A stretch of DNA of 64,000 nucleotides, taken from contig JACRKG010000011.1 of assembly GCA_016215315.1 (NCBI GenBank), forward strand, positions 537 to 64,536. The letters are read 5' to 3'. Of the stretch, positions 11,287-52,228 are shown piece by piece (the first letter of the stretch is position 1; the number at the start of each line of letters is the position of its first letter). This DNA is from Candidatus Woesearchaeota archaeon. Lineage in GTDB: Archaea; Nanobdellota; Nanobdellia; Woesearchaeales; ARS49. The notes beneath the pieces are model-generated. The model had not been told where the DNA came from. It saw nothing but the letters and a program-made list of their open reading frames with translations, and made no database searches. Made by a program: the position numbers and the translations under genes.

Positions 11287-11288
11287 AA

Positions 11289-11325
11289 GGTTTGTAGTTT
11301 ATAGTTTACGGTTCATAGTAAACTA
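11289..11325. repeat. intergenic repeat-family copy (GGTTTGTAGTTTATAGTTTACGGTTCATAGTAAACTA) with small hairpin
   Basis: Abuts the stop of 9667..11286. Contains TAGTTTAC/GTAAACTA inverted repeat. Confidence 0.6.
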
Positions 11326-15601: not shown

Positions 15602-15606
15602 AAAAA

Positions 15607-23599: not shown

Positions 23600-23601
23600 A
23601 A

Positions 23602-23633
23602 GGGTTTGAAGTTCACAGTTTATAGTTTGTAGG
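23602..23633. repeat. intergenic repeat-family copy (GGGTTTGAAGTTCACAGTTTATAGTTTGTAGG)
   Basis: Same family as 28381, 36512, 11289, 49061. Confidence 0.6.
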
Positions 23634-24339: not shown

Positions 24340-24954
24340 TTAATTTTTTCCACCGTAAACTAGTATTAGCCCAACAATTGACAGAACAACACTAAATCCA
24401 ATTATGTGCAAGAAAAAGTATTGAAAGAACATTTGATTAAAAACTTGCACCATTACATAATTACCTGGAAACTGCCATTGATCAAATGCAAGCATTTCAT
24501 GAAATTTTGTGAACAAAAAATTAAAAGGCAGAATTGCTAATAACAAAATCATAACTAAATTAAGAATACTTCCATAAAAAATGATTACTCGATTTATCCT
24601 AAAAGTATAAACGAGTACCAAAATCAAAAACAAAACATTTAGCATAAACATTTTATCTCTTACCTCAAACATATGACTTACTTCTTCTTGCTGAAAGCCT
24701 TGAATGAAGTTAGTTTTGTACGTTAAGTAATCAAGTGTTTTTTGCCCATATTCTTGAGCTTGAGGATGAGCGTTGCTAAGTTCAAACAATAAATTATAAA
24801 ATTGAGCATTAAACGTCAAAAGAAACGCACTCAACAATAAAAGAAATAATGGAAAAACGATAATCAAAAATAAATCCTTCGTGCTTGCAAACTTTCGCCC
24901 CAAAACCATAAACCACAAACTACCAACATTTTTCTTACTTAATCTTTGCGCCAT
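24340..24954 (-). CDS. hypothetical integral membrane protein (5-6 TM)
   Basis: Hydrophobic helices. 20-nt overlap with metG stop. Confidence 0.5.
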   Translation of the reverse strand: MAQRLSKKNVGSLWFMVLGRKFASTKDLFLIIVFPLFLLLLSAFLLTFNAQFYNLLFELSNAHPQAQEYGQKTLDYLTYKTNFIQGFQQEEVSHMFEVRDKMFMLNVLFLILVLVYTFRINRVIIFYGSILNLVMILLLAILPFNFLFTKFHEMLAFDQWQFPGNYVMVQVFNQMFFQYFFLHIIGFSVVLSIVGLILVYGGKN

Positions 24955-27547
24955 CAGGCAGATCTATACTTACACCTTTTAATTCTTTTCCATCACAATA
25001 TGCTTTTTTGTTTTTTACTTCTAGTTTTAGTTTTGCAAAATCTTCAATAGTTATTTGGTTGTTATTAGGTGTTGTTCCTTCGATTTGTACTTGATCACCA
25101 GGGTTACCTTGCGGTTCTAAAACTTTCACAACTCCCTCTTTTTCTGCAGCTAAAAGCATTCCTTGACTTTCTATACCTCGTATATTCGCAGGCTTTAAGT
25201 TTGAAATTATTACTATTTTTTTACCAACCAATTCTTCTTTTTTGTAAGAATTCTTTATTCCACCAACTAATTGTCTTTTTTCCCCACCCAAATCAAGCTT
25301 CAAGAAATATAATTTGTCTGCGTTTGGATGATCTTCTACGGATTCAATTTGAGCAACTTTAAGATTTAACAAAGATAAGCTTTTAGAAGTATTTTGATTT
25401 GTATTTTGTTGAACCTCTTTGCCATTAAAGCCAATTATTAATTCTTTAGCTTCTTTGAGTGCATCTTGCATTTGGTTATCACTCATCTTATTATTACCGA
25501 ACAAGATCAAGAATACGTGCTTAGTTGTTATTTCTGTTTTTGTTTGATTGCATTGTTTTGAGAGTCTTCCTATTATTTTTTCCTCATCAGAATAAACTAG
25601 TTCTCCTGCTTTTAGAAGTTCTCTATTTCCTTCTAAAGAAATAAATTCCTCTCCTTCTTTTGATAATCTTACAGTTATTTTTCCAACTAGCCTATTAACG
25701 TCATGAGTTGCAATAGAAGTTAATGTTTTCACTGATACAATATTGTAAACGTCTACAACTGCATTTATTTGAGGCAAGTTATTTCCTTTGATTAATTTTA
25801 TCAGGCCAACTACTGAGTTGGGATTTTTTTCTTTGTCTAGGCCTGCTTTTTCTTGAATTTTGTTGTATTCTTCAAGAACTTCTTTATTTTCATATTTTTG
25901 AAGATTCTCTTTCAAATCTTTCTTCATTTTTTCTATTGTTTCACTCTTCTTTCTAATCTTTAAATCGTTTATTTGTGTTCCAACTACTTTGATTCCTAAA
26001 TTTTTAACTTCTGGAGAAATGACTAGTTCTATTTCTGGAATTTTTTCTTTTCTTTCAACAAATTCTACTTTTTTGAACAATATTTGTGGTTCTTCTGTTT
26101 TTCCTTTAGTTGTTTTCTTAAAAGTTGCATCTTTGAATGATTTTATTTTTTGTCCTATTTGTTTTGCTAATTTTTCAGAACTTTCAGGAATAAAAGAATA
26201 AGTCAATAATGAAGTAATTCTTAAACTTTCTACAAGCACGTAAAGTATTGTTCCTAATCTTTTTTTGTCTTGAACTTTCCAAGGTTCGGTTTTGTTTATG
26301 TAAGCATTGCATTCATGAATGAATTCCCAAATTATTTCTAACGCTTTACTCCATTCATAATTTTGCATTTGTTCATTGGCTCTAGTAAATAACGTGTTTG
26401 CTTTTTGTATTAATTCTTCATCATCTTTTTCAAACTTTCCAGGCTTGGGAATTTTTCCATCAAAATTTTTGAAGACTAATGTGTTAACTCTTTGTAATAA
26501 GTTTCCTAATGAATTCGCTAAGTCTGCGTTTGCTCTTTCAACTATTGATTTTTCAGAAACATCCCCATCTTGTCCTGCAGGAATATCTCTCATTAAGTAA
26601 TATCTTACTTGGTCAACACCATAAGTATCAATTAAATAAATTGGATCAATAACATTGCCTAATGATTTACTCATTTTTTGGCCTTCAAAAGTTAAGTAAC
26701 CGTGAACTAGCACTTTTTTAGGTTGTTCAATTCCTAAACTATACAACATTCCAGGCCAAATTACTGAATGAAACCAATTAATTCCTTTACCAATAAAGTG
26801 AACATTCGCAGGCCAAAATTTTTCTTTACTTTTTATTCTAGTTGCACTGTAATAGTTTCCAAGCGCGTCAAACCAAACATAAACAGTGTGATTTTGATCT
26901 ATTGGTGTTTTAATACCCCAAGTCTTTCCAACTCTACTAACACTAATATCTTTTAATTCTTCTTTCTCAAGTCTTGACTGTATTTCATTACTCCAAGTTT
27001 GAGGAGTTATCAGTCCTTTTTTTATTAATTCTAGAATTTTCTCTTTGAATTTTGATAATTTGAAAAAATAGCTCTCTTCTTTAATATGTTCTGGCTTTTT
27101 TTTATGTTCGGGACATTCTCCGTTAATCAAATCTTTTTCAGTGTAAAACGCTTCACATCCTTTGCAGTATAATCCTTCATAATGTCCTTTGTAAATATCT
27201 CCGTTATCAAATGCTTTTTTGAACAATTCTTGAACAACTTTTACGTGTCTTTTCTCAACAGTTCTTATGAAATCATCATTTGATAGATTTGCTTTTTTGC
27301 ATAATTCAATAAAAAATTGAGCGTTTTTGTCAACAAATTCTCTTACTGGAATTCCCGCTTTTTCAGCAGCTTCTTCATTCTTTGAAGCATTATCATCTGT
27401 TCCGGTTAAGAAGAAAACATCCTCACCAAGCAACCTGTGCCATCTTGCTATTGCATCAGCTATTGCTTTCTCATACAAATGGCCACAATGAGGTTTGGCA
27501 TTAACATAATCTATTGCAGTAGTAATGTAAAACGTTTTTTTAGCCAT
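24935..27547 (-). CDS. metG: methionyl-tRNA synthetase with C-terminal B3/4-like and EMAP/Trbp111-like tRNA-binding extensions
   Basis: Catalytic domain with KMSKS, CxxC zinc knuckles. B3/4-like DVYNIVSVKTLTSIATHDVNRL...ISLEG. EMAP-like OB fold VEDHPNADKLYFLKLDLGGEKRQLVGGI. Confidence 0.9.
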   Translation of the reverse strand: MAKKTFYITTAIDYVNAKPHCGHLYEKAIADAIARWHRLLGEDVFFLTGTDDNASKNEEAAEKAGIPVREFVDKNAQFFIELCKKANLSNDDFIRTVEKRHVKVVQELFKKAFDNGDIYKGHYEGLYCKGCEAFYTEKDLINGECPEHKKKPEHIKEESYFFKLSKFKEKILELIKKGLITPQTWSNEIQSRLEKEELKDISVSRVGKTWGIKTPIDQNHTVYVWFDALGNYYSATRIKSKEKFWPANVHFIGKGINWFHSVIWPGMLYSLGIEQPKKVLVHGYLTFEGQKMSKSLGNVIDPIYLIDTYGVDQVRYYLMRDIPAGQDGDVSEKSIVERANADLANSLGNLLQRVNTLVFKNFDGKIPKPGKFEKDDEELIQKANTLFTRANEQMQNYEWSKALEIIWEFIHECNAYINKTEPWKVQDKKRLGTILYVLVESLRITSLLTYSFIPESSEKLAKQIGQKIKSFKDATFKKTTKGKTEEPQILFKKVEFVERKEKIPEIELVISPEVKNLGIKVVGTQINDLKIRKKSETIEKMKKDLKENLQKYENKEVLEEYNKIQEKAGLDKEKNPNSVVGLIKLIKGNNLPQINAVVDVYNIVSVKTLTSIATHDVNRLVGKITVRLSKEGEEFISLEGNRELLKAGELVYSDEEKIIGRLSKQCNQTKTEITTKHVFLILFGNNKMSDNQMQDALKEAKELIIGFNGKEVQQNTNQNTSKSLSLLNLKVAQIESVEDHPNADKLYFLKLDLGGEKRQLVGGIKNSYKKEELVGKKIVIISNLKPANIRGIESQGMLLAAEKEGVVKVLEPQGNPGDQVQIEGTTPNNNQITIEDFAKLKLEVKNKKAYCDGKELKGVSIDLPDGAKIK

Positions 27548-28262: not shown

Positions 28263-28380
28263 ATTACGTTTTAGGAATATGGGTTTCTAAAACACCAACA
28301 GATAGAGCAAAATTCGACGTAAATATTGGACAAAATTATACTGGATTGGTTGAACTATTAAAGAAAAAAAGCCAGTAACT

Positions 28381-28446
28381 AGTTTATAGTTTGCAGTTTA
28401 TGGTTCACAGTCGTCCTATAAACTTCAAACTGTAAACTACAAACTT
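28381..28446. repeat. intergenic repeat-family copy forming a long imperfect hairpin
   Basis: AGTTTATAGTTTGCAGTTTATGGTTCACAG-N8-TATAAACTTCAAACTGTAAACTACAAACT. Arms are reverse complements with a few mismatches. Lies immediately 3' of tRNA-Pro. Confidence 0.7.
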
Positions 28447-36206: not shown

Positions 36207-36509
36207 GTGAAAATAACCATCGATACTAAGTTGGATTCAAAAGAGGAGATAAGGAGAGCTGTTGAATTATTAAATAATTTAATGGGAACTAGGAATAGTT
36301 CTGAGCACAGAAATATTTTTGATGATAATACTTCTTCCAGTGTTAGCAATCCTCTCAACATGTTCGATACTAGTAATTCGAGTCCTCCACCAAGTAGTTC
36401 TAGTAGTTCATCAAATGCGTTTAATTCTATGTTTAATAATGAGCCTGAATTAAAAGAAGAAAAGAATGATGACAATGATGATTCAGTTCCTGAGATAGAA
36501 TTCTACTAA
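36207..36509 (+). CDS. hypothetical Ser-rich acidic protein
   Basis: Low-complexity (SSPPPSSSSSSS), acidic C-terminus. Confidence 0.35.
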   Translation: MKITIDTKLDSKEEIRRAVELLNNLMGTRNSSEHRNIFDDNTSSSVSNPLNMFDTSNSSPPPSSSSSSSNAFNSMFNNEPELKEEKNDDNDDSVPEIEFY

Positions 36510-36511
36510 AA

Positions 36512-36588
36512 TAGTTTATAGTTCACAGTTTATGGTTTATAGGTCAATAAGTTTTTTACTGTAAACTCCGAACTACAAACTATAAACT
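36512..36588. repeat. intergenic repeat-family copy forming a long hairpin between convergent genes; abuts both flanking stop codons
   Basis: AGTTTATAGTTCACAGTTTATGGTTTATAGG-N17-CTGTAAACTCCGAACTACAAACTATAAACT. Confidence 0.7.
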
Positions 36589-40678: not shown

Positions 40679-40850
40679 TATTTTTTACCCCTAATAACCC
40701 AAGAAAATATGACAACCCTAAAATCGCCATAAAGACTCGGGCAGAACTTAGAGGAATCTTAGTTTATTTATAAAGCTTTCTAGAATTTTTGAGAAAGTGA
40801 AAAATCCACGTAGCAAAATTTAATTATTAGCTGTCCTTAATTACACCAAC

Positions 40851-42706: not shown

Positions 42707-44059
42707 TTATCGTACTTGCCAGTATCCGCCTTTATCAGGACCTATCCTTTTGATTATTTTTTTATCTTTGAGTATTGCTAATTGTTTTTCTACAGCTCTT
42801 TGAGAAATTCCAATTATTCTGGCCATTTGTCTTGCATTAATGTGTTTGTTTTCTTTTATTAGAGCAATAATTTTCTCCGAACTTCTCTCCGAACCTTCTC
42901 CGAACTTTTCTTCAGCTCTTTCAGAAAAGTACTCTCTTTTGAATTTTATTTTAAAATTTCCTTGGTTTTCTTCAAAAGTTGGAAGGGATAATTTGTTTTC
43001 TTTGAGTAAATTTATAATGTTTATTGTTCCTTTGCCCCAAGTATCAATGTATCCAGTTAGAAAAAATATTTTCGCGATTAGTGGATTGCGTAATTCTGAA
43101 TCATGTTCTTTGTAGAGGTCTTTAATTTTTATTTCTGCAGGAAGTTTTCCCGGGTTTGAGATTGTTATTGATTCGTCATGTATTTTTAGGCATACAAAAC
43201 TATTTTTTCTGTAGTCTCTGTGTATTAATGCGTTAAGTACTGCTTCTCTTAATGCTTCAATTGGTATTTCCCAGCTTTCTTTTCTTCTGAATTCTTCAAT
43301 TCTAGCTCGCACGTGTAGATGATCTTTAAAGAAGGAAAGAGCCCCTTCGAGTAATTGAAATAAATTCCCGTTAAAATCTCTAATGTCCGCAAATTCTTCT
43401 GTTGTTCCTTTGAAACGCCCGCATTTCAAAGTAATGTTTGGAAAGAATCGGTCTGAATTTTTTCCAAAAACAACAACCGCGGCATTTGTCAAACCTTCAC
43501 TAAAAAATAAACCTAATTTTCTTAGAATTGTCTTTTTACTTGTATCTGTTATAATCATTCTTTTTGATTCTTTGGCTAATTTAACAAAAGAATTTACTGT
43601 TTCGTTATCAATGTCTTTTAATGAAGCTTCTTCGCAAATTTCATCATCCCATCTTAGCTTATCTTCATTCTTGTCAACAAACAAATTTTCTAATTCTTTA
43701 GCACTCAACTGTCTGTCCTCGTCGCCAACTCTTGTGTACGCGCGTCCATAAGAAAAATAAGGTTTTTCTGAGCCTTCAAAATCCACAATAACATAATTCT
43801 TACCATTCAAGTCAATTCTGTTGATTTTTGGATAAATCTTTGGTTCTACGTGGTCGCTAATGGCTTTAGAGATTTCTCTTAAAGTATTTTCTGTGACGTT
43901 TTGTCCAACAACCTCACCATCATTTTTTACACCAAAATATAATTGCCCTTTGCCGTGTTTATTTAAAATAGCAACTATTGAGATAATTGCTTCTTTAAGC
44001 TCGGAAGTAGATTTTTTTAGTTCTACTGTTTCGTTTTCCTTTAATTTGTCTTTCGTCAT
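42707..44059 (-). CDS. AlbA_2 (Schlafen-like) domain ATP-binding protein with C-terminal winged-HTH
   Basis: N-terminus VELKKSTSELKEAIISIVAILNKHGKGQLYFGVKNDGEVVG (AlbA_2), HATPase-like middle, C-terminal HTH (INARQMARIIGISQRAVEKQLAILK). Confidence 0.65.
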   Translation of the reverse strand: MTKDKLKENETVELKKSTSELKEAIISIVAILNKHGKGQLYFGVKNDGEVVGQNVTENTLREISKAISDHVEPKIYPKINRIDLNGKNYVIVDFEGSEKPYFSYGRAYTRVGDEDRQLSAKELENLFVDKNEDKLRWDDEICEEASLKDIDNETVNSFVKLAKESKRMIITDTSKKTILRKLGLFFSEGLTNAAVVVFGKNSDRFFPNITLKCGRFKGTTEEFADIRDFNGNLFQLLEGALSFFKDHLHVRARIEEFRRKESWEIPIEALREAVLNALIHRDYRKNSFVCLKIHDESITISNPGKLPAEIKIKDLYKEHDSELRNPLIAKIFFLTGYIDTWGKGTINIINLLKENKLSLPTFEENQGNFKIKFKREYFSERAEEKFGEGSERSSEKIIALIKENKHINARQMARIIGISQRAVEKQLAILKDKKIIKRIGPDKGGYWQVR

Positions 44060-44206
44060 TTTTTTATTAAAGGAAAGTTTTAATTAACAATAACAAAATA
44101 AATATTTCCATCAAAAAGATCAAAATCATCATTGAGTCTATGTGATGTTTGTTGCAAAATGTTTGTACTCGTCGATAAACTTGAATCATACCACACATTT
44201 AGCACT

Positions 44207-44325
44207 AATTCTTTATATGTTTTTCTAGAAAGATTTCTCAGAAAAGTGAGAAATTTTTCCAAAAAAATGAGAAAATTTCTCAAAAAATGGAAATATTTTC
44301 CAAAAAATTAGAAAAAATTTACTGA
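44207..44325. repeat. about 110-nt repeat element copy 1: TTCTTTATATG-TTTCTAGAAA plus 4-5 units of 21-nt period built on palindrome GAGAAATTTCTC
   Basis: Near-identical copy at 51671..51770 in direct orientation. Confidence 0.7.
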
Positions 44326-44344
44326 ATTGAATTAGACTTATTTT

Positions 44345-44581
44345 TTAACTACAATAACGATCGTATCCTCCATCATAGTCACGACCACAATTTCTTCTTT
44401 GTTTTCGCTCTTCTGCGTCCATAGCTACTGCTCGATCTTCAGCATCGCCAAATAAATCAGTAACATTTACAACAGTTCTTCCTGTTTTTTTCAGTTGAGC
44501 ATCAATTTGTCTTTTCAATTCTGCAGCTTTTTGCTGATCTTCAGGTGTTAATTTATCAGATATTTCTTTTTTTTCAGACAT
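44345..44581 (-). CDS. hypothetical small charged protein
   Basis: 78-aa ORF with coding periodicity. Confidence 0.4.
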   Translation of the reverse strand: MSEKKEISDKLTPEDQQKAAELKRQIDAQLKKTGRTVVNVTDLFGDAEDRAVAMDAEERKQRRNCGRDYDGGYDRYCS

Positions 44582-44726
44582 TTATTTTCCTCCTATTTTT
44601 ATTCATATTAAATACTCCTAGTATTTAAATGTTTCGAAATATTTACTACCATTTAGTGGCAAAAGTAGAAAGATTTAAAAGATCGGCAGAAATACCAGGT
44701 TAAAGAAGATTTTAGGGGGTATCAAA

Positions 44727-45728
44727 ATGGCAAACTTACACGAACTTTTCAGAAAATATGTTCAAGAAAGACAACAAGTTAGTTCTTTAGGACAACAATT
44801 AACACAACAAAGAGTAGAACTTACTGATTTAGAAAAAGCTTTAGATGGTGGCCAAGTTAAAGATGCTTTAACAAAAGAAATACAAACAAGAGAAGGACAA
44901 GTAGCCGAAGCAAAAAAAGCTTTAGAAGCAGGACAATTAGAACAAGGGTACAATGCTTTATTTCCTCAAGAAGCAAAAGTTTGTGTAGCACCAGTAAAAA
45001 AAGATATTCTTGCAGGATTGGATATTGAATTAAGATCAGATAAATTTACCTCATTTTCAGAAAATTTAGAAAGATTAAGACTTGCAGGATATGACCGACA
45101 TATAAGACCTGCCGAACTTATAGAAGTTCTATCAAGATACTTTGAAGGAGATAGAAATTATGAACAAACAGCCGAACTCTTCAATAATTCCAAGATGGTT
45201 TATGGAAACATCGCTTGGGTTGGTTTGGCTGCAAGATTAAAAAAAGGCAGCCAAGAAATCGAGTTCGCTTTAGATCCTGAATTCAACACGCCTTACAAAG
45301 CATACTTACTTGAAATAGATCCATTAAAAGCAAGTAAAAAAATAACACTAAATTCTTTATTATTCAACGGAATAAAAATCTACCAACAATACGATTTTGG
45401 AACCGTTATAGAAACAAAAGTAAACGAATTACCTGAAGAATTAGTTGAACTTCTTTGTGGCAGAAGTTCTGAAGATTTACCTGAAAAATTAAACGACTTG
45501 ATGTTATCATTGCGTCTAAATGAGCGGGAATGGTCCGTTCTAGCATTCGGAAGAGCATCTTGTGGAAACTTTTATTTCACAAATGCACCAACACAATTTG
45601 TACCTGCCCAATCTATAGGCGTAAAAAATCACACATCAGTACAGGAAGAAGATAAAGTTCCTACAAAATTAGAATATAACGGAGGTAAAAAAAATGAAAG
45701 AAGCATTAAACAAGTATACTCAAGCTAA
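44727..45728 (+). CDS. hypothetical protein: N-terminal coiled coil, paralogous to next gene, no MIDAS motif
   Basis: N-terminus KYVQERQQVSSLGQQLTQQRVELTDLEKAL parallels KYTQAKVEVDSRRQEVAGLEATLAGQ of the next gene. ALFPQEAKV vs LLFPDQVV. Confidence 0.5.
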   Translation: MANLHELFRKYVQERQQVSSLGQQLTQQRVELTDLEKALDGGQVKDALTKEIQTREGQVAEAKKALEAGQLEQGYNALFPQEAKVCVAPVKKDILAGLDIELRSDKFTSFSENLERLRLAGYDRHIRPAELIEVLSRYFEGDRNYEQTAELFNNSKMVYGNIAWVGLAARLKKGSQEIEFALDPEFNTPYKAYLLEIDPLKASKKITLNSLLFNGIKIYQQYDFGTVIETKVNELPEELVELLCGRSSEDLPEKLNDLMLSLRLNEREWSVLAFGRASCGNFYFTNAPTQFVPAQSIGVKNHTSVQEEDKVPTKLEYNGGKKNERSIKQVYSS

Positions 45729-46488
45729 AGTTGAAGTTGATTCAAGAAGACAAGAAGTTGCAGGTTTAGAAGCAACATTAGCAGGACAAAATCAATCTTT
45801 TGCAGCAACAGAACAAGAATTAAAAGCTGCAATCCAACAAGAAATAGACGCAAGATTTGCATCATTAACAGAAGCAGATAAAGCACTATTACAAAACGAC
45901 CCAGTCAAAGCATACCAATTATTATTTCCGGACCAAGTAGTTAGTCCAGGAAAATACAGAGGATTTGCAGTATTATTAGATAGTTCTGGATCAATGGAAG
46001 ACTTCGGCGCATTTAAAGAAGCATCTCAAGGAGCTCAAGAAGCATTTAATTTTTGTACTGGTGACGGAGCAGTAATAAATTTCAGTCTTGAAACTTTATT
46101 TTCCGGTTGGACTTATTTACTAGATGCTTATGGAAAAAACGGTTATAGAACAAGAAATGTTTGCGCTATGAGCTTTCTTAGTGATTACTTGAGAACTTTT
46201 CAAAGAGGCGGAACTCAATTAAGCAACAAAGAATTAATGCAATTAATAAATCAAGCAAAAGAACCTTTTTACGCACTAATGGTGACCGATGGACAAATCG
46301 AGAATTTCAACAAAATACAAGACACTCTAAAAAGCTTAAAAGAAAAGGGCAATGAACTAGAAATAATTTACCTAGGTTCTGACGCTAAGTGTCTTAAAGA
46401 CTTGACAGCTTTAGCAAAAGTTCAATCAGTCAAACCAAACCAAGTAAAAGCAAAAATACTAGAGTGCGCTAGAGCTAAACTTGAATGA
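45694..46488 (+). CDS. von Willebrand factor A (vWA) domain protein with N-terminal coiled coil
   Basis: MIDAS residues: VLLDSSGSM (DxSxS), GGTQLS (Thr), VTDGQ (Asp). Overlaps previous gene by 35 nt. Confidence 0.6.
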   Translation: MKEALNKYTQAKVEVDSRRQEVAGLEATLAGQNQSFAATEQELKAAIQQEIDARFASLTEADKALLQNDPVKAYQLLFPDQVVSPGKYRGFAVLLDSSGSMEDFGAFKEASQGAQEAFNFCTGDGAVINFSLETLFSGWTYLLDAYGKNGYRTRNVCAMSFLSDYLRTFQRGGTQLSNKELMQLINQAKEPFYALMVTDGQIENFNKIQDTLKSLKEKGNELEIIYLGSDAKCLKDLTALAKVQSVKPNQVKAKILECARAKLE

Positions 46489-46939
46489 AATGAATCTTAA
46501 ACAAATCGTTCAAGATCTTTTTCAGAATTACAAAGCAAATAAGCAAACCATTCAAGAAAGAGAAGTTCTGGAAGAAGAACTTCTTTCATTCTCAGGAATT
46601 GAAAGAAATGATTCTTATTTTTTTGTTTTGATACCTGTTGACTCTCCCGACCTTCAACATTTTGGTTCTGCTTGCGGTGAATTTGGAAACAAAATGTTCT
46701 CTAGCAAATCATTAGCAACATTTCTTAAAAACAAAGATGTAAAAAACATTTTAGGGATTGTTTACCAACCACACTCAGATTTTACTTATTCAAATAATAC
46801 TGTAGCTTTAAGCGCCATTGCATTACCAATTGTTGGAAAAGATGGGCACGTATTTCAATTTTTAGCAGAAAAAAACAAAGGCAGCTTCAGATATGAAAGA
46901 TCAAGAGTTAAAGTATGGAGCGTTTACGAATCGGAATAA
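46481..46939 (+). CDS. hypothetical protein (152 aa), third gene of the cassette
   Basis: Overlaps the vWA gene stop by 8 nt. Confidence 0.45.
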   Translation: MNEMNLKQIVQDLFQNYKANKQTIQEREVLEEELLSFSGIERNDSYFFVLIPVDSPDLQHFGSACGEFGNKMFSSKSLATFLKNKDVKNILGIVYQPHSDFTYSNNTVALSAIALPIVGKDGHVFQFLAEKNKGSFRYERSRVKVWSVYESE

Positions 46940-46945
46940 AAAGAT

Positions 46946-47479
46946 TCAAAACTTATCACTGATATCTTCAGTCCTAAAACCTTTAACAAGAGCCACTCCA
47001 TCTATTGTGGAATGATTGTAAGTCTCTACATCTACCATTCTAAGTATTTGATGAACTTTAACTATTGGAGGCCATAGTTGAATCCAGGTACCTTTGGGAG
47101 TTATTTCGTCATTTACATTCTCTATCTGATTGCGACATTCTGGATAACACATAATAAGCAACAAACTTTCACCACCATAATCTTTTGCAAGAATATGAGA
47201 ATACCATGAGCTATCATTCAGTCCAGTTTCTAAAGTTGGCACACCATCAATAATTGCACATTCATCTTTCTCATAAACAATTCTCCTACCATCTCTAACC
47301 AAATATTGATAAATTGCATCATCAAGTTTGGCAGTGCTCATACACCCCCTATTCGCCATAGTAGTTTTTCTTTTATCAAATACTTTTCTTACTGAATCAT
47401 AGCCTTGCAAAAAGGTCGTAGAATTAATTCCAGATACTATATAACCTTTATAACCTAAATTTTTTGACATTTTTATCAC
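46946..47479 (-). CDS. hypothetical protein (177 aa) with conserved-looking Cys/His residues
   Basis: Clear ORF. No family assigned. Confidence 0.45.
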   Translation of the reverse strand: MIKMSKNLGYKGYIVSGINSTTFLQGYDSVRKVFDKRKTTMANRGCMSTAKLDDAIYQYLVRDGRRIVYEKDECAIIDGVPTLETGLNDSSWYSHILAKDYGGESLLLIMCYPECRNQIENVNDEITPKGTWIQLWPPIVKVHQILRMVDVETYNHSTIDGVALVKGFRTEDISDKF

Positions 47480-47597
47480 CTGTCTTAAAATACATCATTA
47501 TAAGAATATGCACCCTATTTAAATCTTTCTATTTTAACCACTTACGAGTGATTACAAAACAAAACATTTATAAAGAGCTGCGTTTCTTACTCAATTC

Positions 47598-48080
47598 ATG
47601 ACATTTTACATCATAATTAGAGGACCTTTGGGGGTTGGCAAATCTACGATTAGTAAAAGTATTGCTAAAGAATTGAATGCAGAGTATATTTCAATAGACA
47701 AAGTATTATCTGAAAATGGTTTAGATAAAGTAGAGAATGACATTCCTGAAAAGAATTTTATTAAAGCTAATGAAATAATACTTCCTAAAGCTCAAGAAAT
47801 TTTAAGCAGAGGAAAACCAATAGTTTTTGATGGTAATTTTTACTTTCATGCACAAATCAGCCACCTAATTGAAAATTTAGAAGGTCAACATTATATTTTT
47901 ACTTTAGACGCTAGCATAGGAACTTGCATTAGGAGAGATGCTCAGAGAGAAAAACCTTGCGGTGAAGACGCTGCAAAAGCAGTTTACAGTTTAGCATCTA
48001 GAGTTATTTACGGACAAAAGATTAGCACTGAAAACAAAAGCATAGAACAAGTTATTGAGGAAATAAAAAAACAATTATGA
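47598..48080 (+). CDS. P-loop kinase (AAA_33 / zeta-toxin / CPT-like fold)
   Basis: Walker A IIIRGPLGVGKST at extreme N-terminus. Walker B-like IVFDGNFYF. Confidence 0.65.
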   Translation: MTFYIIIRGPLGVGKSTISKSIAKELNAEYISIDKVLSENGLDKVENDIPEKNFIKANEIILPKAQEILSRGKPIVFDGNFYFHAQISHLIENLEGQHYIFTLDASIGTCIRRDAQREKPCGEDAAKAVYSLASRVIYGQKISTENKSIEQVIEEIKKQL

Positions 48081-48316
48081 GATCAATAGAATTTGTCGCG
48101 GTAATAAAATACCTAAACATGAATGAAGACGCAGTTAGATTAATTTTTGAGAGACTGTGTCCTGGAGAATATTATTGTAGACACTTTGAAAATTTAAGAA
48201 GAAAGGACATTATAGGAATAGTAGATATTACAGATTACGATCAAGTGTTTAACAGAGGAGTACCTTCAGATTTAGGCAGATTCATTGAAAGAATAGCAAT
48301 AATCGATGAGCACTAA
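48077..48316 (+). CDS. hypothetical small protein translationally coupled (ATGA overlap) to the P-loop kinase
   Basis: 79-aa ORF. Confidence 0.4.
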   Translation: MRSIEFVAVIKYLNMNEDAVRLIFERLCPGEYYCRHFENLRRKDIIGIVDITDYDQVFNRGVPSDLGRFIERIAIIDEH

Positions 48317-48370
48317 CGACAAAAACTTTAAAAACAAACAAATTAAACACAATCTTTTGGAGGAAATAAT

Positions 48371-49060
48371 ATGGAAACACAAACAAAAACACACGAACAT
48401 AATCATGAAAAGCATAATCATAGTTGCAACAACACTCATTCGACGCCAAGCGACCCTCTGACACCCAGTAACATTTCGACACCTAATGATACCAAGGACA
48501 ACGATTTTGGAGTAGTCAAAATCACTAAAAGTATGACTATTGGTGAGCTTGTGCAAACGTATCCTTCTTGCGCTGAAGTTTTAATGGAGGCTGGAGTTCA
48601 TTGCGTAGGTTGCGGTGCAGCTTTTTGGGAAACAATAGAACAAGGACTTAAAGGCCACGGAATGAGTGATGAAGACGTCGATGAAGTGGTTAAACAATTA
48701 AATGATGCAATTCCTAAAGATGCAGGCGGAAGCAATGATACTGTTGTCGTTACTGAAAAAGCGGCAGAAAAATTAAAAGACATTCTTAAGGAACAAAAAA
48801 AAGAAGGCTACGGATTAAGAATTGAAGTTCTTCCAGGAGGATGTTCTGGATTCCAGTATGCTTTTGATTTCGAAAATGAAAAGAAAGAAAATGATACAGT
48901 AATAGAAGTTAGCGGAGTTAATTTTTTTGTCGATAATGAAAGCATAAAAATGCTTAGAGGAGCAAGAATTGATTACGTTGACAGCTTGCAAGGTGCTGGA
49001 TTCAAAATAAGCAATCCTAATGCAAAAAGCACTTGCGGTTGCGGACAGTCGTTTAGTTAG
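48371..49060 (+). CDS. fusion protein: His-rich N-terminus + DUF1858 (hybrid-cluster-associated redox disulfide domain) + HesB/IscA-type Fe-S cluster insertion domain
   Basis: HEHNHEKHNHSCNNTH. TIGELVQTYPSCAEVLMEAGVHCVGCG (DUF1858). C-terminal IscA signature CSGF...CGCGQSF. Confidence 0.65.
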   Translation: METQTKTHEHNHEKHNHSCNNTHSTPSDPLTPSNISTPNDTKDNDFGVVKITKSMTIGELVQTYPSCAEVLMEAGVHCVGCGAAFWETIEQGLKGHGMSDEDVDEVVKQLNDAIPKDAGGSNDTVVVTEKAAEKLKDILKEQKKEGYGLRIEVLPGGCSGFQYAFDFENEKKENDTVIEVSGVNFFVDNESIKMLRGARIDYVDSLQGAGFKISNPNAKSTCGCGQSFS

Positions 49061-49150
49061 AAATTTACGGTTTGTAGTTCACAGTGAAAAACTCAGCGGC
49101 CATTCGACACCAAGTAATATTTTGATACCGAAATGATGTCTCGGACGGCA
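49061..49150. repeat. intergenic repeat-family copy (AAATTTACGGTTTGTAGTTCACAG) plus conserved 47-nt leader motif
   Basis: CCATTCGACACCAAGTAATATTTTGATACCGAAATGATGTC matches 7891..7931. Imperfect stem GCCATTCGA / TCGGACGGC. Confidence 0.55.
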
Positions 49151-49176
49151 TAAATAAAATATGACAGGAGAAAAAA

Positions 49177-49779
49177 ATGAAAGTACTAGCGTTTAGCGAT
49201 GTTCACGGCGATCATTCTTTAATTAGAAAGCACGTTGAAACTGCAAAAAAAGAAAACGTTGACTTGGTTATTATTGCAGGAGACTTTTCAGTGTTAGACC
49301 AAGCACCGCAAAACTTAATAGGTCCGTTTAAAGCTATTGGAAAAAAAGTTTTAGTTGTTCACGGAAATCATGAAAGCGAAACAACGCTTGAATTTTTGTC
49401 TGAAAGTTATAAAGTTGGAAATCTTAACAAGTATGCTGTAGAGTATGATGGCGTAGGATTTTTTGGTGCTGGTGGAGCAAGTATTGGTCCTTTTATGACT
49501 CCGGAAAAAGTAATTTTTGAAAGAATAAAAAACGGACACAAGTATGTTAGCAAAGCAAAGAAAAAAATCATGGTAACTCATTCTCACCCAAGTGGTTCTT
49601 TGATGGAACAGTTTTCTAATATTGTTCCAGGTAGCGAAAGTGTTAGAAGAGCAATAGAACAATTTCATCCAGATATTGTGGTTTGCGGTCACGTTCATGA
49701 AGCTCAAGGAATCGAAGAAAAAATAGGAAATACTAGAGTAATTAATGTTTCTAAAGTTGGAAAAATATTTGACATATGA
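49177..49779 (+). CDS. calcineurin-like metallophosphoesterase
   Basis: LAFSDVHGD, IIAGDFS, VHGNHE, GHVHEAQG motifs. Confidence 0.7.
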   Translation: MKVLAFSDVHGDHSLIRKHVETAKKENVDLVIIAGDFSVLDQAPQNLIGPFKAIGKKVLVVHGNHESETTLEFLSESYKVGNLNKYAVEYDGVGFFGAGGASIGPFMTPEKVIFERIKNGHKYVSKAKKKIMVTHSHPSGSLMEQFSNIVPGSESVRRAIEQFHPDIVVCGHVHEAQGIEEKIGNTRVINVSKVGKIFDI

Positions 49780-49889
49780 TTCTAGAATCAAGCTTGCTTC
49801 GCGATTAATGATTCCATAATAATTTGACTTCCAAAGTTTTAACAACAAGAGTGGGCGTGTTATTTTTAATTAATTTTCTCCTTTTAAAT

Positions 49890-50040
49890 TTTTGTCTCAG
49901 CCCGTCCGCGAATTGATAAAAATTTAATTGTGGCGGACGGTCTTCGAGAATTATAGTTAAAGATCATTCCGAAGATTGGCGGGCCAAAGTTCATATCAAT
50001 TTGCCCGCCAATCTTCGTGTAAATGTCCGCAGGACTGGAA
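49890..50040. other. GC-rich cluster of hairpins in intergenic DNA (candidate structured RNA or terminator cluster)
   Basis: CCGTCCGC-N23-GCGGACGG. Perfect 14-bp inverted repeat CGAAGATTGGCGGG-N20-CCCGCCAATCTTCG (49970..50017). GTCCGC recurs. Confidence 0.35.
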
Positions 50041-50097
50041 ACTGAGAATTTTCATCATAAAAATAAAAACCAATTAAACCACCCGAACATAACCTTT

Positions 50098-50115
50098 TTG
50101 TGTACTAGTACACAA
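50098..50115. promoter_or_regulatory. perfect 18-nt palindrome TTGTGTACTAGTACACAA about 55 nt upstream of the 50174 start: candidate operator
   Basis: Read directly. Self-complementary. Confidence 0.4.
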
Positions 50116-50173
50116 TTAGGTTTTTAAATCTTGATTGGTTTCTCTGAGTTATTCGAGTGGAGGAAAAAATAAA

Positions 50174-51127
50174 ATGGAAAGAACAATTGTTGTTGATGAT
50201 TTAACTTATTTTAGAGCTTTAGATTATAGTGTTAGAGAAGCCATGAAAGCTTTTGAGACTTCTTTGGTCGAAGCTGCTGAACAAACAGTTAGTGATATTG
50301 AAGCGAAAGTTGGAAGTTATCCTGTTGAAGGGTACTATCATGAAACAGAAAACTTAACGAGATACTTTAATGCAATAAGAACTTTACAAGATCCAGTAAA
50401 TTTTTCAGAAAAAGTAACTGATAACATAAAATTGTTTAACAAAATTTACACACATCCAGTTTTTGGGTTAAAACAAGCAATGCCTACAGCATTAAATAAA
50501 GATGCTTACTGGAAAGATCATGAACCCGTTGTTGTTTCTCCAGTTATTGATCCAGTGACTATTGCAACACAAAAAACTTATCCTAGTTGGACTTTTGATA
50601 CAATCATGACTGCTATTGAAGGACAAGAATTAGGAACTTGCCTTGTTGGTTTGGCAGCTCTCGTTGACCAGAATAATAAAGTTGACGGAAAATACAATCC
50701 TGTAGCTACAACTTGGGCTAGAGAAACTACTGTTTTGTCAGCTGCAAAATTTGTAGCAAGAAGCTGCATGCCTTCAAAACCAACAATTGATTGGCAAGTG
50801 AGCAAAGAAGTAGAAGAATACGGCACTAAAGTACTTGCAGGATATGCTGACTTAATAGAGAATAATTCTCTCACAAGAAATGTAAGAAGACCTTATGAGG
50901 TTAATGAGAAAACAATTAGCGCATTATTGAGCAATTCAGAAAACCCACGAAGATGTGTTCATTTATGCACTGACGACAAAAAAAATCACTATCATTGGGC
51001 TGTTGCAGTTGATAACAACGGTAAGTACAGAGTAGTTGACTTTTATGCAAAAAAAATAGTGACAACAAAAGAATACCAAAAAGATCCAAGCGCAGTATTA
51101 CAGCTTGAATTTTTTGATAGAAACTAA
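50174..51127 (+). CDS. hypothetical protein (317 aa), possible Cys/His hydrolase
   Basis: Start at MERTIVV. C-terminus CVHLCTDDKKNHYHWAVAVD. Confidence 0.45.
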   Translation: MERTIVVDDLTYFRALDYSVREAMKAFETSLVEAAEQTVSDIEAKVGSYPVEGYYHETENLTRYFNAIRTLQDPVNFSEKVTDNIKLFNKIYTHPVFGLKQAMPTALNKDAYWKDHEPVVVSPVIDPVTIATQKTYPSWTFDTIMTAIEGQELGTCLVGLAALVDQNNKVDGKYNPVATTWARETTVLSAAKFVARSCMPSKPTIDWQVSKEVEEYGTKVLAGYADLIENNSLTRNVRRPYEVNEKTISALLSNSENPRRCVHLCTDDKKNHYHWAVAVDNNGKYRVVDFYAKKIVTTKEYQKDPSAVLQLEFFDRN

Positions 51128-51183
51128 TAAATTAAGTTTACATCAGAAGATCAAAACGCCCGAGTGATTACGCTCAGAATTTT

Positions 51184-51504
51184 TTAACTAAATAATTTAG
51201 TTTTAATAATAGTCAGATCTTTATTTATTTTTTCAAATTTTGAAGAAGTTTCTTTTTTAAATTCTTTCAGATCAAGTTTAAGTTCTTTGATGTCTTCTTG
51301 AATGTGTTCAATGGAAGAGGAAAATTTCCCAGTAGTATAGAATATATTAATAACCATAATTCCTATTCCTACAGACAAAGCAACAGTTATTTCATCTAAA
51401 GTAGGACTGTGCCCAGTTAATTTTAGTAAAATCATATATATTACCACTAAGAAACAAACTATAGATAGTATCGATACCACTAAATTAATCAAATCTTTTA
51501 TCAT
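51184..51504 (-). CDS. hypothetical small membrane protein with C-terminal coiled coil
   Basis: Two TM helices then a KELKLDLKEFKKE heptad region. Confidence 0.4.
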   Translation of the reverse strand: MIKDLINLVVSILSIVCFLVVIYMILLKLTGHSPTLDEITVALSVGIGIMVINIFYTTGKFSSSIEHIQEDIKELKLDLKEFKKETSSKFEKINKDLTIIKTKLFS

Positions 51505-51670
51505 TTCACACCTTTCAAAAGCATTAGCACAGCTAAAAACAAAGTCAACGCCAAAATCCAAGGCATAATTGCGTAATACAACTTGTTAAATTTAGCATAA
51601 AAAATGTCAAATTTGCTTTCTGTTGAGTTTATCGTCAATCGATTCATTTTACAAATCATATTAAACAATT

Positions 51671-51770
51671 ATTCTTTATATGTCTTTCTAGAAAAATTTC
51701 TCAGAAAAATGAGAAATTTTTCCAAAAAATGAGAAGATTTCTCAAAAAGTTGAAAATCTTTCAATGGTTG
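51671..51770. repeat. about 110-nt repeat element copy 2 (GAGAAATTTCTC-type palindrome array)
   Basis: ATTCTTTATATGTCTTTCTAGAAAAATTTCTCAGAAAAATGAGAAATTTTTCCAAAAAATGAGAAGATTTCTCAAAAAG matches 44207..44300 at about 90%. Confidence 0.7.
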
Positions 51771-51811
51771 GAGAATTCTTCAAGTACAGAGAATTTTGCG
51801 AAGCAAAATTC

Positions 51812-52228
51812 TCACTTCATCTTTTTTGTTACTGCAATTCTTTCTTTGCATTTGCTGCAATTAAATACTACTGCATCTGCAGTTACATCTTTTTGTTTTG
51901 CTTCGTCAAATATTTTTACTTTTTTTCTTGCAAAAGGAATTTGTGTTTCTCCTTCATTTTTGCATTTGCCGCAAGTGTATTGTATGTTTGCAGTTAGTGT
52001 ATCTTCGTAAGCTTCTTTTTCAACAGTGTGACCACATTCAGGACAAGTATATTCGTTTGCTCTAATCTTTGGCTTTCCAGTTTTAGGATCTTTTGGTTTA
52101 CCCATTGTTCCTTTTTTGCATTGAGGACAAGTTTCTTTGAACACCCAAGTAACTATTTTTTGATCACCAACTAATCTTCTAGTGAAATAAGCACAATCGT
52201 CCATACTATCCGGATATTTTAATGCCAT
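51812..52228 (-). CDS. zinc-ribbon protein with four CxxC pairs
   Basis: CPQC...CPEC...CGKC...CSKC spaced as two Cys4 ribbons. Confidence 0.6.
   Translation of the reverse strand: MALKYPDSMDDCAYFTRRLVGDQKIVTWVFKETCPQCKKGTMGKPKDPKTGKPKIRANEYTCPECGHTVEKEAYEDTLTANIQYTCGKCKNEGETQIPFARKKVKIFDEAKQKDVTADAVVFNCSKCKERIAVTKKMK

Follow-up and report, generated by a model that had tools for sequence, protein, structure and literature searches.

A duplicated promoter-linked array of palindromes on predicted curved DNA in a woesearchaeote: a candidate Lrp-type operator module

Two copies of a repeat with palindromic arrays

The DNA analysed here (the window) is a stretch of 64,000 nucleotides from a Woesearchaeota (DPANN) archaeon. 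It carries two paralogous copies of a repeat with 86–89 per cent identity, copy A at 44158–44335 and copy B at 51622–51783. Positions 44194–44266 and 51657–51729 match without gaps at 89 per cent, local alignment gives 86 per cent over 110 nt, and weaker homology reaches left to 44158 and 51622 (MAFFT, nhmmer). The two direct repeats of the original prediction are thereby confirmed, and its count of eleven genes between them is roughly right. Its label of a 'vWA cassette' for some of these genes has no Pfam support, although a 264-aa protein does hold a DSSGS motif.

Each copy consists of a TATA/BRE head followed by four to five imperfect 15-bp palindromes at a pitch of 20–21 bp; in both, TTCTTTATATGT(T/C)TTTCTAGAAA precedes five units. 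In array A (44226–44323), units u1–u5 (44226–44240, 44247–44261, 44268–44282, 44288–44302, and 44309–44323) are separated by A5–7 spacers, with centre-to-centre distances of 21, 21, 20, and 21 nt. In array B (51689–51783), the units lie at 51689–51703, 51710–51724, 51730–51744, 51750–51764, and 51769–51783, their centres are 21, 20, 20, and 19 nt apart, and u4 contains TGAAAATCTTTCA (51751–51763), a box of the FL11 type discussed below. The originally described four to five units and period of about 21 nt hold, whereas the proposed 12-mer unit GAGAAATTTCTC never occurs exactly (three matches at ≤1 mismatch): the true unit is the 15-mer TGAGAAA-N-TTTCTCA, perfect only at 44268–44282. Just distal to array B, an 11-bp perfect hairpin (51789–51813) overlaps the stop codon of a Zn-ribbon gene; it lies outside the homology between the copies and is partly kept in L044, one of the related loci described below.

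Chance does not account for the repeat. Exact matches to the 20-nt head number two, where 0.19 would be expected, and A and B are the sole places in the 64 kb with chains of at least three boxes spaced by 19–22 nt; none of 30 Markov-random sequences contained such a chain. The chain result shows uniqueness and gives no independent P-value, since the weight matrix was trained on the units of both arrays. A partial relative, copy C (40764–40800, minus strand), aligns to A and B at 74 per cent over 46 nt. It is the promoter of the S13 operon (TTCTAGAAAGC-TTTATAAA), preceded by roughly a single unit (TTTCTCAAAAA), and its weight-matrix score of 13.6 bits on the minus strand ranks tenth among 127,966 positions.

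Core promoter and neighbouring genes

In copy A, the TATA box reads CATATAAA on the minus strand (44212–44219); the identical box is present in copy B (51675–51682) and in the related loci L044, L045, and L049. The adjoining BRE regions (44220–44231 and 51683–51694, minus strand) include the palindrome TTTCTAGAAA (44222–44231 and 51685–51694), and TAGAAAnn abuts the TATA box upstream at three further window promoters (44666, 47531, and 40782). The promoter consensus of the host genome is RAAA-nn-TTTAWAWA followed by 21–24 nt to the start codon, a leaderless spacing measured on 18 training promoters. An ATG lies 22 nt downstream of the TATA box in copy A and at +15 and +27 in copy B; in all six copies, a minus-strand ATG is found at +22 or +27, and in L045, L049, and L051, the ATG behind the head is the start of a called gene (81, 79, and 49 aa, respectively). 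Promoter scores of the heads are moderate, at 5.2–5.7 bits on the minus strand versus 2.9–4.4 on the plus strand (5.7 and 4.4 in copy A), and in L049 the plus strand scores higher, so that the minus-strand direction rests mainly on the ATG spacing. From this geometry, we infer that the head (BRE TAGAAA(A/G)AC, then TATA) would fire leftward and give leaderless or near-leaderless transcription into a small ORF and the gene downstream of it.

Behind copy A, the target gene would be that of an AlbA_2/HATPase_c_4/wHTH protein (42707–44059, minus strand; Pfam, PADLOC), whose C-terminal wHTH also matches HTH_24. The small ORF between them (44067–44189, minus strand; 40 aa, or 43 aa from 44198) is possibly leaderless, encodes a hydrophobic C-terminus, and ends 7 nt ahead of the AlbA_2 start codon. 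It has no protein-level homology to its counterpart at copy B, only its first ~45 nt (44158–44205) are homologous to copy B as DNA, with frame-breaking indels, and it may be no gene at all, its coding status being uncertain. Behind copy B, the targets would be a 48-aa membrane peptide and then a 106-aa membrane/coiled-coil protein. The peptide (51501–51647, minus strand) is opened by the +27 ATG, has a C-terminal transmembrane helix, and is 44 per cent identical to the called 49-aa gene at the same position in L051 (E = 9e-13). Its stop codon overlaps the start of the next gene (ATGA), to which it is translationally coupled. That second gene of the operon (51184–51504, minus strand) encodes the 106-aa protein, which is homologous to a 101-aa protein of L051 (E = 3e-23) and weakly SLATT-like (PADLOC RTasSLATT, E = 1e-4; a longer ORF matches Pfam SLATT_5, E = 0.0013). 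Thus, the AlbA_2 and membrane-protein genes do lie downstream of the repeats, as originally described, but the 95–150 nt in between are not empty, since the two small ORFs occupy them.

Conservation and synteny in relatives

Four related genomes carry homologous copies, and every one of these occupies the same slot, with a metallophosphoesterase gene on one side and a Zn-ribbon gene on the other. The matches are L044 (E = 1e-34), L045, L049, and L051–53, with nhmmer E-values from 1e-22 to 1e-38 for a profile of six copies. Between copy B and its L044 orthologue, 29 of 29 positions are identical in the head, 60 of 70 in the array, and 29 of 50 in the distal part, whereas 4-fold degenerate sites of the flanking genes are 52 per cent (PepF) and 74 per cent (Zn-ribbon) identical. 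The degree of conservation in the head and array far exceeds that of neutral sites.

Gene content behind the head varies among the genomes. The array of L045 and L049 takes up the interval between the minus-strand promoter and a second TATA box, that of a plus-strand gene of 179–189 aa, and in L051, too, the gene upstream of the array is divergent. Relatives with ~70 per cent PepF identity carry the kinase, Fe-S fusion, and phosphoesterase genes in the same order, between the aminotransferase and Zn-ribbon/PepF genes, and have a single copy of the element, at the position of copy B, and no copy A. In our reading, copy B is ancestral and orthologous to the relatives' copies, and copy A is a lineage-specific duplicate that would now drive a different gene. 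The variable DNA comprises two separate slots, each adjoining one copy, and not the whole 7.4-kb block. The suggestion that the repeats mark the ends of an acquired island is refuted by this synteny, because the block genes are kept where only one copy exists; the copies are probably regulatory modules in variable gene slots, and the other earlier suggestion, of a regulatory signature shared by two promoters, is still plausible.

Curvature and the candidate operator

Array A has the highest AA/TT Fourier power at 10.5 bp among 12,779 windows. In a wedge model, no other 120-nt segment of the 64 kb is as curved, and array B is the next locus; the Fourier measure is parameter-free, and the curvature ranks of the wedge model are indicative. 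By one measure or both, the relatives' copies come first or second in their respective loci, and L044, L045, L049, and L051, although only ~70 per cent identical in sequence, retain high phasing or curvature. With centres two helical turns apart, all boxes fall on one face of the helix.

Our best reading, which we favour with slightly better than even confidence, is a promoter with a wrapped, Lrp-type operator cluster. Each copy would be a cis-regulatory DNA module of ~150–190 bp in two parts: the leftward core promoter and, abutting the BRE upstream, ~100 bp of intrinsically curved DNA in which four to five imperfect palindromes follow the pattern abcde-WWW-edcba. A winged-helix regulator would bind these boxes cooperatively as dimers, which would join into a higher oligomer with the pre-bent array wrapped around it. 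Since the first box both adjoins and overlaps the BRE, such a complex would control access of TFB and TBP to the head, whether by repression or activation, and in the relatives it would also govern the divergent promoter beyond the opposite end of the array. A dimeric-regulator operator array with two helical turns per unit, as originally proposed, is thus now the best, though predicted, explanation.

The most likely candidate for the regulator, judged by sequence, is the product of an Lrp/AsnC-family (FFRP) gene at 13104–13595 (plus strand; Pfam HTH_24 and AsnC_trans_reg). Its best solved relative is FL11 (PH1519; E = 2e-21), whose base-contacting Ser36 and Thr37, which touch G/A(b) and T(a), it keeps; it differs at residues 24, 34, 35, and 39. 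The general FFRP box is abcdeWWWedcba, and FL11 was crystallized with TGAAA[AAT/ATT]TTTCA and assayed with CTGAAA[AAT/ATT]TTTCAG (PMC2715240). The L045 and L049 boxes read CTGAAA-AGT/ATA/ATC/GAT/ACT-TTTCA(G/A/T), and those of the window include TGAAA-ATC-TTTCA, GGAAA-TAT-TTTCC, and GAGAA-AAT-TTCTC. Most window units have a 1–2-nt centre when read as nGAAA/TTTCn half-sites and fit the 13-bp form only through the GAGAA-WWW-TTCTC reading. FL11-type boxes are not enriched in the window as a whole (41 observed versus 58 expected), and none was seen by eye upstream of the Lrp gene. Alternative regulators could be the adjacent wHTH proteins: the AlbA_2-wHTH protein in the window and a Csa3-like wHTH pair in the relatives, where the 116-aa protein of L045 matches the Csa3 wHTH.

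One feature fits a protein-binding site less readily. The 13-bp inverted repeat formed by u1 and u2 is perfect in both copy B and L044 despite two double substitutions, a pattern more typical of a hairpin constraint or of template-switch correction of a quasi-palindrome than of a protein half-site; it is not significant among the three sequences (61 of 500 shuffles).

Alternative explanations

Phased A-tracts might by themselves produce a static bend of ~100 bp that needs no dedicated regulator, the bend positioning a chromatin protein (histone or Alba) or stimulating or insulating the promoter, and the palindromes being a by-product of GAAA/TTTC phasing. The rank of the two arrays as the most curved and most AA/TT-phased loci of the window, and the retention of these properties in the relatives, are what this explanation expects. 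Curvature, however, needs no dyad symmetry, yet every lineage has kept palindromes that are perfect or nearly so, and their half-sites change in concert (TGAGAAA in the window lineage versus CTGAAA in L045 and L049). Moreover, a scan of window ORFs (small ORFs in part) turned up neither a histone nor an Alba gene. We regard a purely architectural element as unlikely.

Hairpin-capable inverted repeats could also form a recombination or cassette-exchange site (cf. attC, dif, or the ends of single-stranded-DNA transposons) that anchors the exchange of adjoining operons or, in a narrower form, the att ends of an island. The element is the sole conserved non-coding piece in a hypervariable slot, and the same head precedes unrelated operons (type I in copy B and L051, type II in L045 and L049). 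L049 and L051 share derived head features and diverge directly past ATATAAAGAA, and the window gene order resembles a circular permutation of the L051 order with its break at the distal end of the array. Further hints are the compensatory changes in u1/u2, a box-like remnant at 50041–50057, the end of the L044 contig within the element, and the position of AlbA_2 homologues (73 and 64 per cent identity, without an array) next to tyrosine-recombinase genes. However, the scanned window ORFs include no integrase or transposase, and none lies beside the element in any relative; the 64 kb contain two copies only, and neither terminal inverted repeats nor target-site duplications were observed. The same patterns would arise from homologous recombination at any conserved sequence or from plain gene turnover, and the synteny of the genes between the copies contradicts the island form. 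We consider such a site quite improbable.

Iterated RNA hairpins or sRNAs, also raised in the original prediction, fare still less well, and we judge them very improbable. A plus-strand TATA box (TTTATATG) would drive an RNA of ~100 nt ending at the T-run at 44341–44346 or at the hairpin and T-run at 51789–51830. T-runs do lie downstream of both window copies, the plus-strand promoter score is non-trivial (and the higher one in L049), and the lone unpaired position of u1/u2 in copy A would pair as G-U on the plus strand. Folding of either strand is better than that of shuffled controls (z from -2 to -5.5), but any palindromic array folds well on both strands, and these scores do not discriminate. 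At a TATA-to-start spacing of 22 nt, the plus-strand start would fall between u1 and u2 and cut the best-conserved inverted repeat. In L045, L049, and L051, the array directly precedes another promoter or gene and not a terminator, sitting, where two core promoters diverge, between them. An Rfam search of the element found no family match even at E < 5, and the array can hold no conserved ORF because its 20/21-nt period breaks the reading frame.

Least probable of all is a terminator or insulator that blocks read-through from the minus-strand gene upstream: both window copies do start 20–30 nt past such a gene's stop codon (a 78-aa gene and the Zn-ribbon gene), and the minus strand offers four to five T6–T7 runs, each preceded by a small hairpin, that match the oligo-T termination signal of archaea, but L045, L049, and L051 have a divergent plus-strand gene there instead, so termination cannot be the conserved function, though in the window it is possibly a secondary advantage.

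Comparison with known systems

Bacterial promoters are known with upstream curved DNA made of phased A-tracts. The arrays resemble these elements in having A/T tracts every ~10.5 bp, abutting the core promoter, and a strong predicted bend; they differ in serving an archaeal TBP/TFB system and in arranging the tracts as dyad-symmetric boxes, which curvature does not need. Integron platforms combine a resident promoter and attI with promoterless cassettes that carry attC hairpins. Like them, the element is a conserved, promoter-bearing non-coding piece followed by exchangeable, apparently promoterless (leaderless) gene sets, and its imperfect inverted repeats are hairpin-capable, with pairing kept by double changes. 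Unlike in integrons, there is no integrase nearby, each element has one operon and no cassette array, the repeats lie upstream of the promoter and not at cassette 3' ends, and no excision junctions are known. Plasmid iterons share the four to five repeats, the period of about two helical turns, and the two sets bracketing genes, but the units here are palindromic and not directional, no Rep-like gene is present, and the two sets enclose chromosomal, syntenic genes.

The closest parallels to the preferred reading, a wrapped Lrp-type operator cluster, come from archaeal Lrp proteins, whose sites are clusters of imperfect boxes two or three helical turns apart, with ~100 bp wrapped (PMC2995911); the arrays likewise spread a number of imperfect boxes over ~100 bp, at intervals of two turns and facing the same side of the helix. 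In Pyrococcus, FL11 clusters at the fl11 and lysine-biosynthesis promoters also consist of 13-bp abcdeWWWedcba boxes with A/T centres, in arrays that adjoin or cover the BRE/TATA; the half-sites of the FL11 co-crystal DNA (TGAAA...TTTCA) are identical to array half-sites, and the array's genome has an FL11-like gene. In contrast to FL11 operators, many boxes of the window lineage are GAGAA-type or short-centred, and binding is here a prediction from the DNA. The Lrp gene lies 30 kb away without such boxes upstream, four of six contact residues differ, and the genes behind the arrays do not belong to amino-acid metabolism but encode an AlbA_2 regulator, a SLATT-like protein, and small membrane proteins. 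In the control region of Ss-LrpB in Sulfolobus solfataricus, three dimers wrap three boxes set at regular intervals, and in the Ss-LrpB and Ptr2 systems, cooperative binding bends or wraps the DNA, with dual activator/repressor outcomes (PMC2995911). The sites of Ss-LrpB and of Ptr2 (Methanocaldococcus jannaschii), like the arrays, are spaced palindromic boxes upstream of or overlapping the core promoter; the arrays are set apart by their four to five boxes, by very strong predicted intrinsic curvature, and by being part of a module that has been duplicated and sits in a slot whose operons are swapped among genomes.

Structure of the repeated element

The two homologous stretches lie where the original prediction had placed them, as a repeat search and an alignment both confirmed. 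Copy A (44158–44335) and copy B (51622–51783) are 89 per cent identical over 73 ungapped nt (44194–44266 versus 51657–51729) and 86 per cent identical across 110 nt, and weaker similarity continues leftwards as far as 44158 and 51622. Both carry a head, TTCTTTATATGT(T/C)TTTCTAGAAA, which is followed by an array of five imperfect 15-bp palindromes (u1–u5, with u1 nearest to the head). The palindromic units, 4–5 per copy, are separated by A5–7 tracts, and their centers are 19–21 nt apart. The 12-mer originally quoted as the unit has zero exact occurrences in the window; the actual unit is TGAGAAA-N-TTTCTCA, which is perfect at 44268–44282 only. The head was observed twice (0.19 occurrences expected), and, across the 64 kb, chains of at least three boxes at 19–22-nt spacing are confined to copies A and B; random sequences contained none. 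A partial third relative, copy C, is located at 40764–40800.

We rejected the possibility that the array is coding: its 20/21-nt period, together with the indels that separate the copies, disrupts every frame. We also set aside the resemblance of the units to a CodY box (TTTTCAGAAAAT) as coincidental; CodY proteins form a bacterial family.

Distribution of the element in relatives

Exact 21–24-nt patterns spanning the head-to-u1 and u1–u2 junctions had zero matches in reference genomes or viral contigs, and the seven matches among JGI metagenome contigs were all due to chance, in coding DNA of unrelated organisms. Species-representative genomes were not useful, since even the nearest are too distant: the closest reached through the aminotransferase was 44 per cent identical, with neither synteny nor the element. 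Relatives were located via the PepF and Zn-ribbon proteins, whose genes flank copy B, and then searched for the element with nhmmer. Homologous elements were found in contig L044 (PepF 82 per cent identical; E-value 1e-34), L045/L046 (PepF 70 per cent), L049 (72 per cent; from the same MAG as L048), and L051–L053 (70 per cent). With a profile of six copies, all homologous elements were recovered with E-values of 1e-22 to 1e-39.

Every relative's copy sits in the slot flanked by the metallophosphoesterase and Zn-ribbon genes. In L047 (71 per cent identity), these two genes are 27 nt apart and the element is absent; it is also absent from L055–L058 (Zn-ribbon relatives, 67 per cent identity), which have a different synteny. 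The Logan contig of the closest relative, L044, stops inside the element (positions 1–60), within the start of the small open reading frame (ORF), as would be expected if the element were repeated there and broke the assembly.

The element does not resemble a MITE or other small mobile repeat, with many dispersed copies, terminal inverted repeats, and target-site duplications; it has two copies in 64 kb, and its genomic position is kept across relatives. An iteron-type replication origin was likewise rejected, because the units are dyad-symmetric rather than directional and the neighboring genes have no Rep-like Pfam match.

Gene content between and around the copies

The suggestion that the two copies mark the ends of an acquired island is refuted by synteny. 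In L045, L049, and L051, the genes follow the same order as in the window (aminotransferase, then P-loop kinase, DUF1858/Fe-S fusion, and metallophosphoesterase, then Zn-ribbon and PepF), with no second copy of the element between the aminotransferase and the kinase. Because this order is kept in relatives that lack a second copy, the genes between copies A and B are largely ancestral. The direct repeats are only 86–89 per cent identical, and no integrase or recombinase was found among the window ORFs scanned. Copy B is the ortholog of the relatives' copies, and copy A is a duplicate specific to the window lineage.

Two intervals of the window are variable. The first (42.6–47.5 kb) holds the AlbA_2 gene, copy A, and genes for proteins of 78, 333, 264, and 152 aa; the second (49.8–51.8 kb) holds a 330-aa gene, 106-aa and 48-aa genes, and copy B. 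The genes at 44345–46939 (78 aa on the minus strand; 333, 264, and 152 aa on the plus strand) had been labeled a 'vWA cassette'. That label found no significant Pfam or PADLOC match; what can be retained of it is a DSSGS motif in the 264-aa protein, reminiscent of a vWA MIDAS. The 333-aa and 264-aa proteins share an N-terminal coiled-coil-like region (E-value 5e-6), and the four-gene set is absent from the relatives examined.

The gene that comes behind copy A encodes an AlbA_2-HATPase_c_4-HTH_24 protein, and behind the head in L045 and L049 is a Csa3-like wHTH protein of 116–124 aa; no direct similarity was found between the AlbA_2 wHTH and the 116-aa wHTH of L045. Pfam, PADLOC, and PDB sequence searches with the slot proteins gave weak hints only (Csa3-like wHTH, SLATT-like protein). 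The closest AlbA_2-wHTH homologs (L002, 5006–6925, 73 per cent identical; L003, 9187–11362, 64 per cent) have no array. Each directly follows a small tyrosine-recombinase (Phage_integrase) gene, and their contexts are unrelated, which suggests that the AlbA_2-wHTH gene moves between genomes. Since such homologs occur elsewhere without the array, the element is not tied to the AlbA_2 gene.

The metallophosphoesterase and 330-aa genes are separated by 355 nt of intergenic DNA, which contains, at 49888–50035, two long perfect GC-rich hairpins, CCGTCCGC...GCGGACGG and CGAAGATTGGCGGGC...GCCCGCCAATCTTCG (RNA-folding z-scores of −6.7 on the plus and −5.8 on the minus strand). They have no Rfam match and, among the fetched loci, occur in the same-strain contig L001 only.

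The head as a predicted core promoter

The regions upstream of window genes yielded the promoter consensus RAAA-nn-TTTAWAWA. In 18 window genes the start codon lies 21–24 nt past the TATA, a spacing from which many mRNAs of this organism appear to be leaderless. On the minus strand, the head reads TAGAAA(A/G)AC-CATATAAA, and all six copies have a minus-strand ATG after the TATA, at +22 (copy A, L045, and L049) or +27 (copy B, L044, and L051). These ATGs open independently called genes in L045 (81 aa), L049 (79 aa), and L051 (49 aa). The 48-aa ORF behind copy B is 44 per cent identical to the 49-aa gene of L051, and its stop overlaps the start of the 106-aa gene (ATGA), whose product is homologous to a 101-aa protein of L051. 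The small ORF behind copy A was rejected as a homolog of that behind copy B, as the proteins have no similarity and the DNA homology includes frame-breaking indels. Promoter weight-matrix scores for the head are moderate and favor the minus strand only slightly, so that the direction of the promoter rests mainly on the ATG geometry. By its sequence, the head is a predicted minus-strand core promoter, and u1 overlaps its predicted BRE. Copy C is among the top ten window promoters, on the minus strand, and faces the S13 ribosomal-protein operon; what copies A, B, and C have in common is TTCTAGAAAnn-TATA plus about one upstream unit.

Probable Lrp-type boxes, predicted curvature, and a candidate regulator

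The idea that the array is an operator for a dimeric regulator holds up, and can be sharpened to a predicted Lrp-type, wrapped, promoter-proximal cluster. FL11, of the archaeal Lrp family, was crystallized on TGAAA[AAT/ATT]TTTCA and binds CTGAAA[AAT/ATT]TTTCAG; the general FFRP box is abcdeWWWedcba, in which the A/T center is required for bending (Yokoyama et al., PMC2715240). Units in L045 and L049 read CTGAAA-NNN-TTTCAG, with the centers AGT, ATA, ATC, GAT, and ACT: CTGAAA-AGT-TTTCAG, CTGAAA-ATC-TTTCAA, and CTGAAA-GAT-TTTCAT in L045, and CTGAAA-ATA-TTTCAG and CTGAAA-ACT-TTTCAT in L049. In the window, GAGAA-AAT-TTCTC (44269–81), GGAAA-TAT-TTTCC (44289–301), and TGAAA-ATC-TTTCA (51751–63) have the 13-bp form with an A/T-rich 3-bp center (PMC2715240), which the remaining units fit imperfectly. 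Archaeal Lrp sites are imperfect and clustered; they share a helical face, their centers lie two or three turns apart, and about 100 bp of DNA is wrapped at such clusters (PMC2995911). The window copies, with 4–5 units and centers 19–21 bp apart, conform to this clustering (PMC2995911). In L049, and between the last two boxes of L045, the centers are 20 bp apart.

An Lrp/AsnC protein (HTH_24 and AsnC_trans_reg domains) is encoded at 13104–13595, and its best relative of solved structure in PDB is FL11 (E-value 2e-21). It retains Ser36 and Thr37, which read G/A(b) and T(a), and differs from FL11 at residues 24, 34, 35, and 39 (Ile, Pro, Thr, and Gln).

The array is under constraint: between copy B and its L044 ortholog, 29 of 29 sites are identical in the head, 60 of 70 in the array, and 29 of 50 in the distal part; four-fold degenerate sites of the flanking genes are 52 per cent (PepF) and 74 per cent (Zn-ribbon) identical. 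The 10.5-bp phasing of AA/TT, a Fourier measure, is the strongest in the window at array A (rank 1 of 12,779). A wedge model gives an indicative ranking in which array A is the most curved 120-nt window and array B the next locus; the Fourier result does not depend on the wedge angles. In the relatives, each copy is first or second in its own locus by phasing, by curvature, or by both, although sequence identity is only about 70 per cent. Purely architectural or chromatin-positioning DNA would agree with this curvature; we consider this explanation unlikely, as it does not fit the persistent dyad symmetry of the units.

We instead favor an operator that is both bound and bent. Dimers of a wHTH regulator, with the FL11-like Lrp as first candidate and the wHTH proteins encoded at the locus as alternatives, would bind cooperatively to the phased boxes, wrapping the pre-bent array. 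Because u1 overlaps the predicted BRE, the complex would gate the access of TFB/TBP to the head. In L045 and L049, the array exactly spans the gap between the minus-strand promoter and the second TATA, that of a divergent 179–189-aa gene, and lies outside both predicted transcripts; in relatives the complex would control this divergent promoter as well. We infer that a protein binds, in which sense it regulates, and any effector.

Alternative explanations for the array

The element persists while neighboring operons are exchanged, and it could be a resident promoter–operator docking platform at which promoterless, leaderless operons swap. Unrelated operons stand behind the same head in different genomes, and L049 and L051 have common derived head features, yet their similarity breaks right after the TATA (ATATAAAGAA). 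Compared with L051, the window genes appear to be circularly permuted, with the break at the array's distal end. These three observations would be footprints of such exchange. In L051, the homolog of the 330-aa protein adjoins the array on its plus side (8990–9076) and is 5'-truncated, lacking about 30–45 N-terminal residues, and upstream of the window 330-aa gene is a box-like remnant (50041–50057; TGAGAATTTTCATCA then TAAAAATAAAAAC) similar to the final box and spacer of the array in L045. Finally, the 13-bp u1/u2 inverted repeat is still perfect after two double substitutions. However, this covariation is not significant (three sequences), template-switch correction of quasi-palindromes could yield the u1/u2 pairing without selection, and no recombinase was found nearby among the window ORFs scanned. 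We regard a docking platform as quite improbable, and give as little credence to its extension into an integron-like arrangement in DPANN archaea without a recognizable integrase, in which the hairpin-capable inverted repeats, with pairing preserved by double substitutions, would be the recombination site.

In the window, the array may possibly terminate the upstream minus-strand genes, but relatives have no such upstream gene, and termination therefore cannot be the conserved function. A reading as RNA hairpins or a plus-strand sRNA has little support: both strands fold with equal z-scores, no Rfam family comes near any gathering score, transcription from the plus strand is predicted to start between u1 and u2 and would cut the conserved inverted repeat, and L045, L049, and L051 have no terminator behind the array.

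Other repeats and ORFs in the window

A second repeat family, with the 7-nt-periodic unit (A/G)GTT(T/C)A(T/C)(A/G), occurs at 11283–11319, 23597–23633, 28377–28410, and 36507–36543. The copies at 28377 and 36507 are each followed by an inverted copy, forming large hairpins; that at 28377 adjoins tRNA-Pro, and that at 11283 lies between two convergent gene ends. Both copies of a 79-nt direct repeat of 78 per cent identity (15524–15602 and 16065–16143) finish in a stop codon. The second copy is the 3' end of ORF 15607–16143, and the two seem to be 3' ends of paralogous ORFs in tandem. The methionyl-tRNA synthetase ORF at 24935–27547 (870 aa) is an unusual fusion, with an internal B3_4 domain and a C-terminal tRNA_bind domain.

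Significance and relation to known systems

Setting aside the 7.4-kb block as an island removes a false lead and flags the slot between the metallophosphoesterase and Zn-ribbon genes as a turnover hot spot for operons, with a conserved non-coding element as its anchor. For this Woesearchaeota lineage, the element provides a concrete putative promoter–operator module, in which a predicted leaderless core promoter is joined to 100 bp of pre-bent DNA with predicted Lrp-type boxes, and for which a candidate FL11-like regulator is encoded on the same contig. Its putative target genes, for a SLATT-like membrane protein and an AlbA_2/Schlafen-type regulator, resemble genes of conflict or defense and not those of amino-acid metabolism. 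Should the link to Lrp be true, an obligate symbiont would have such genes tied to a feast/famine sensor. The genomes of DPANN archaea are tiny and encode few regulators, and, to our knowledge, almost none of their cis-regulatory DNA has been described experimentally. The element represents a known kind of regulatory architecture, none of which, as far as we know, had been described before in this lineage.
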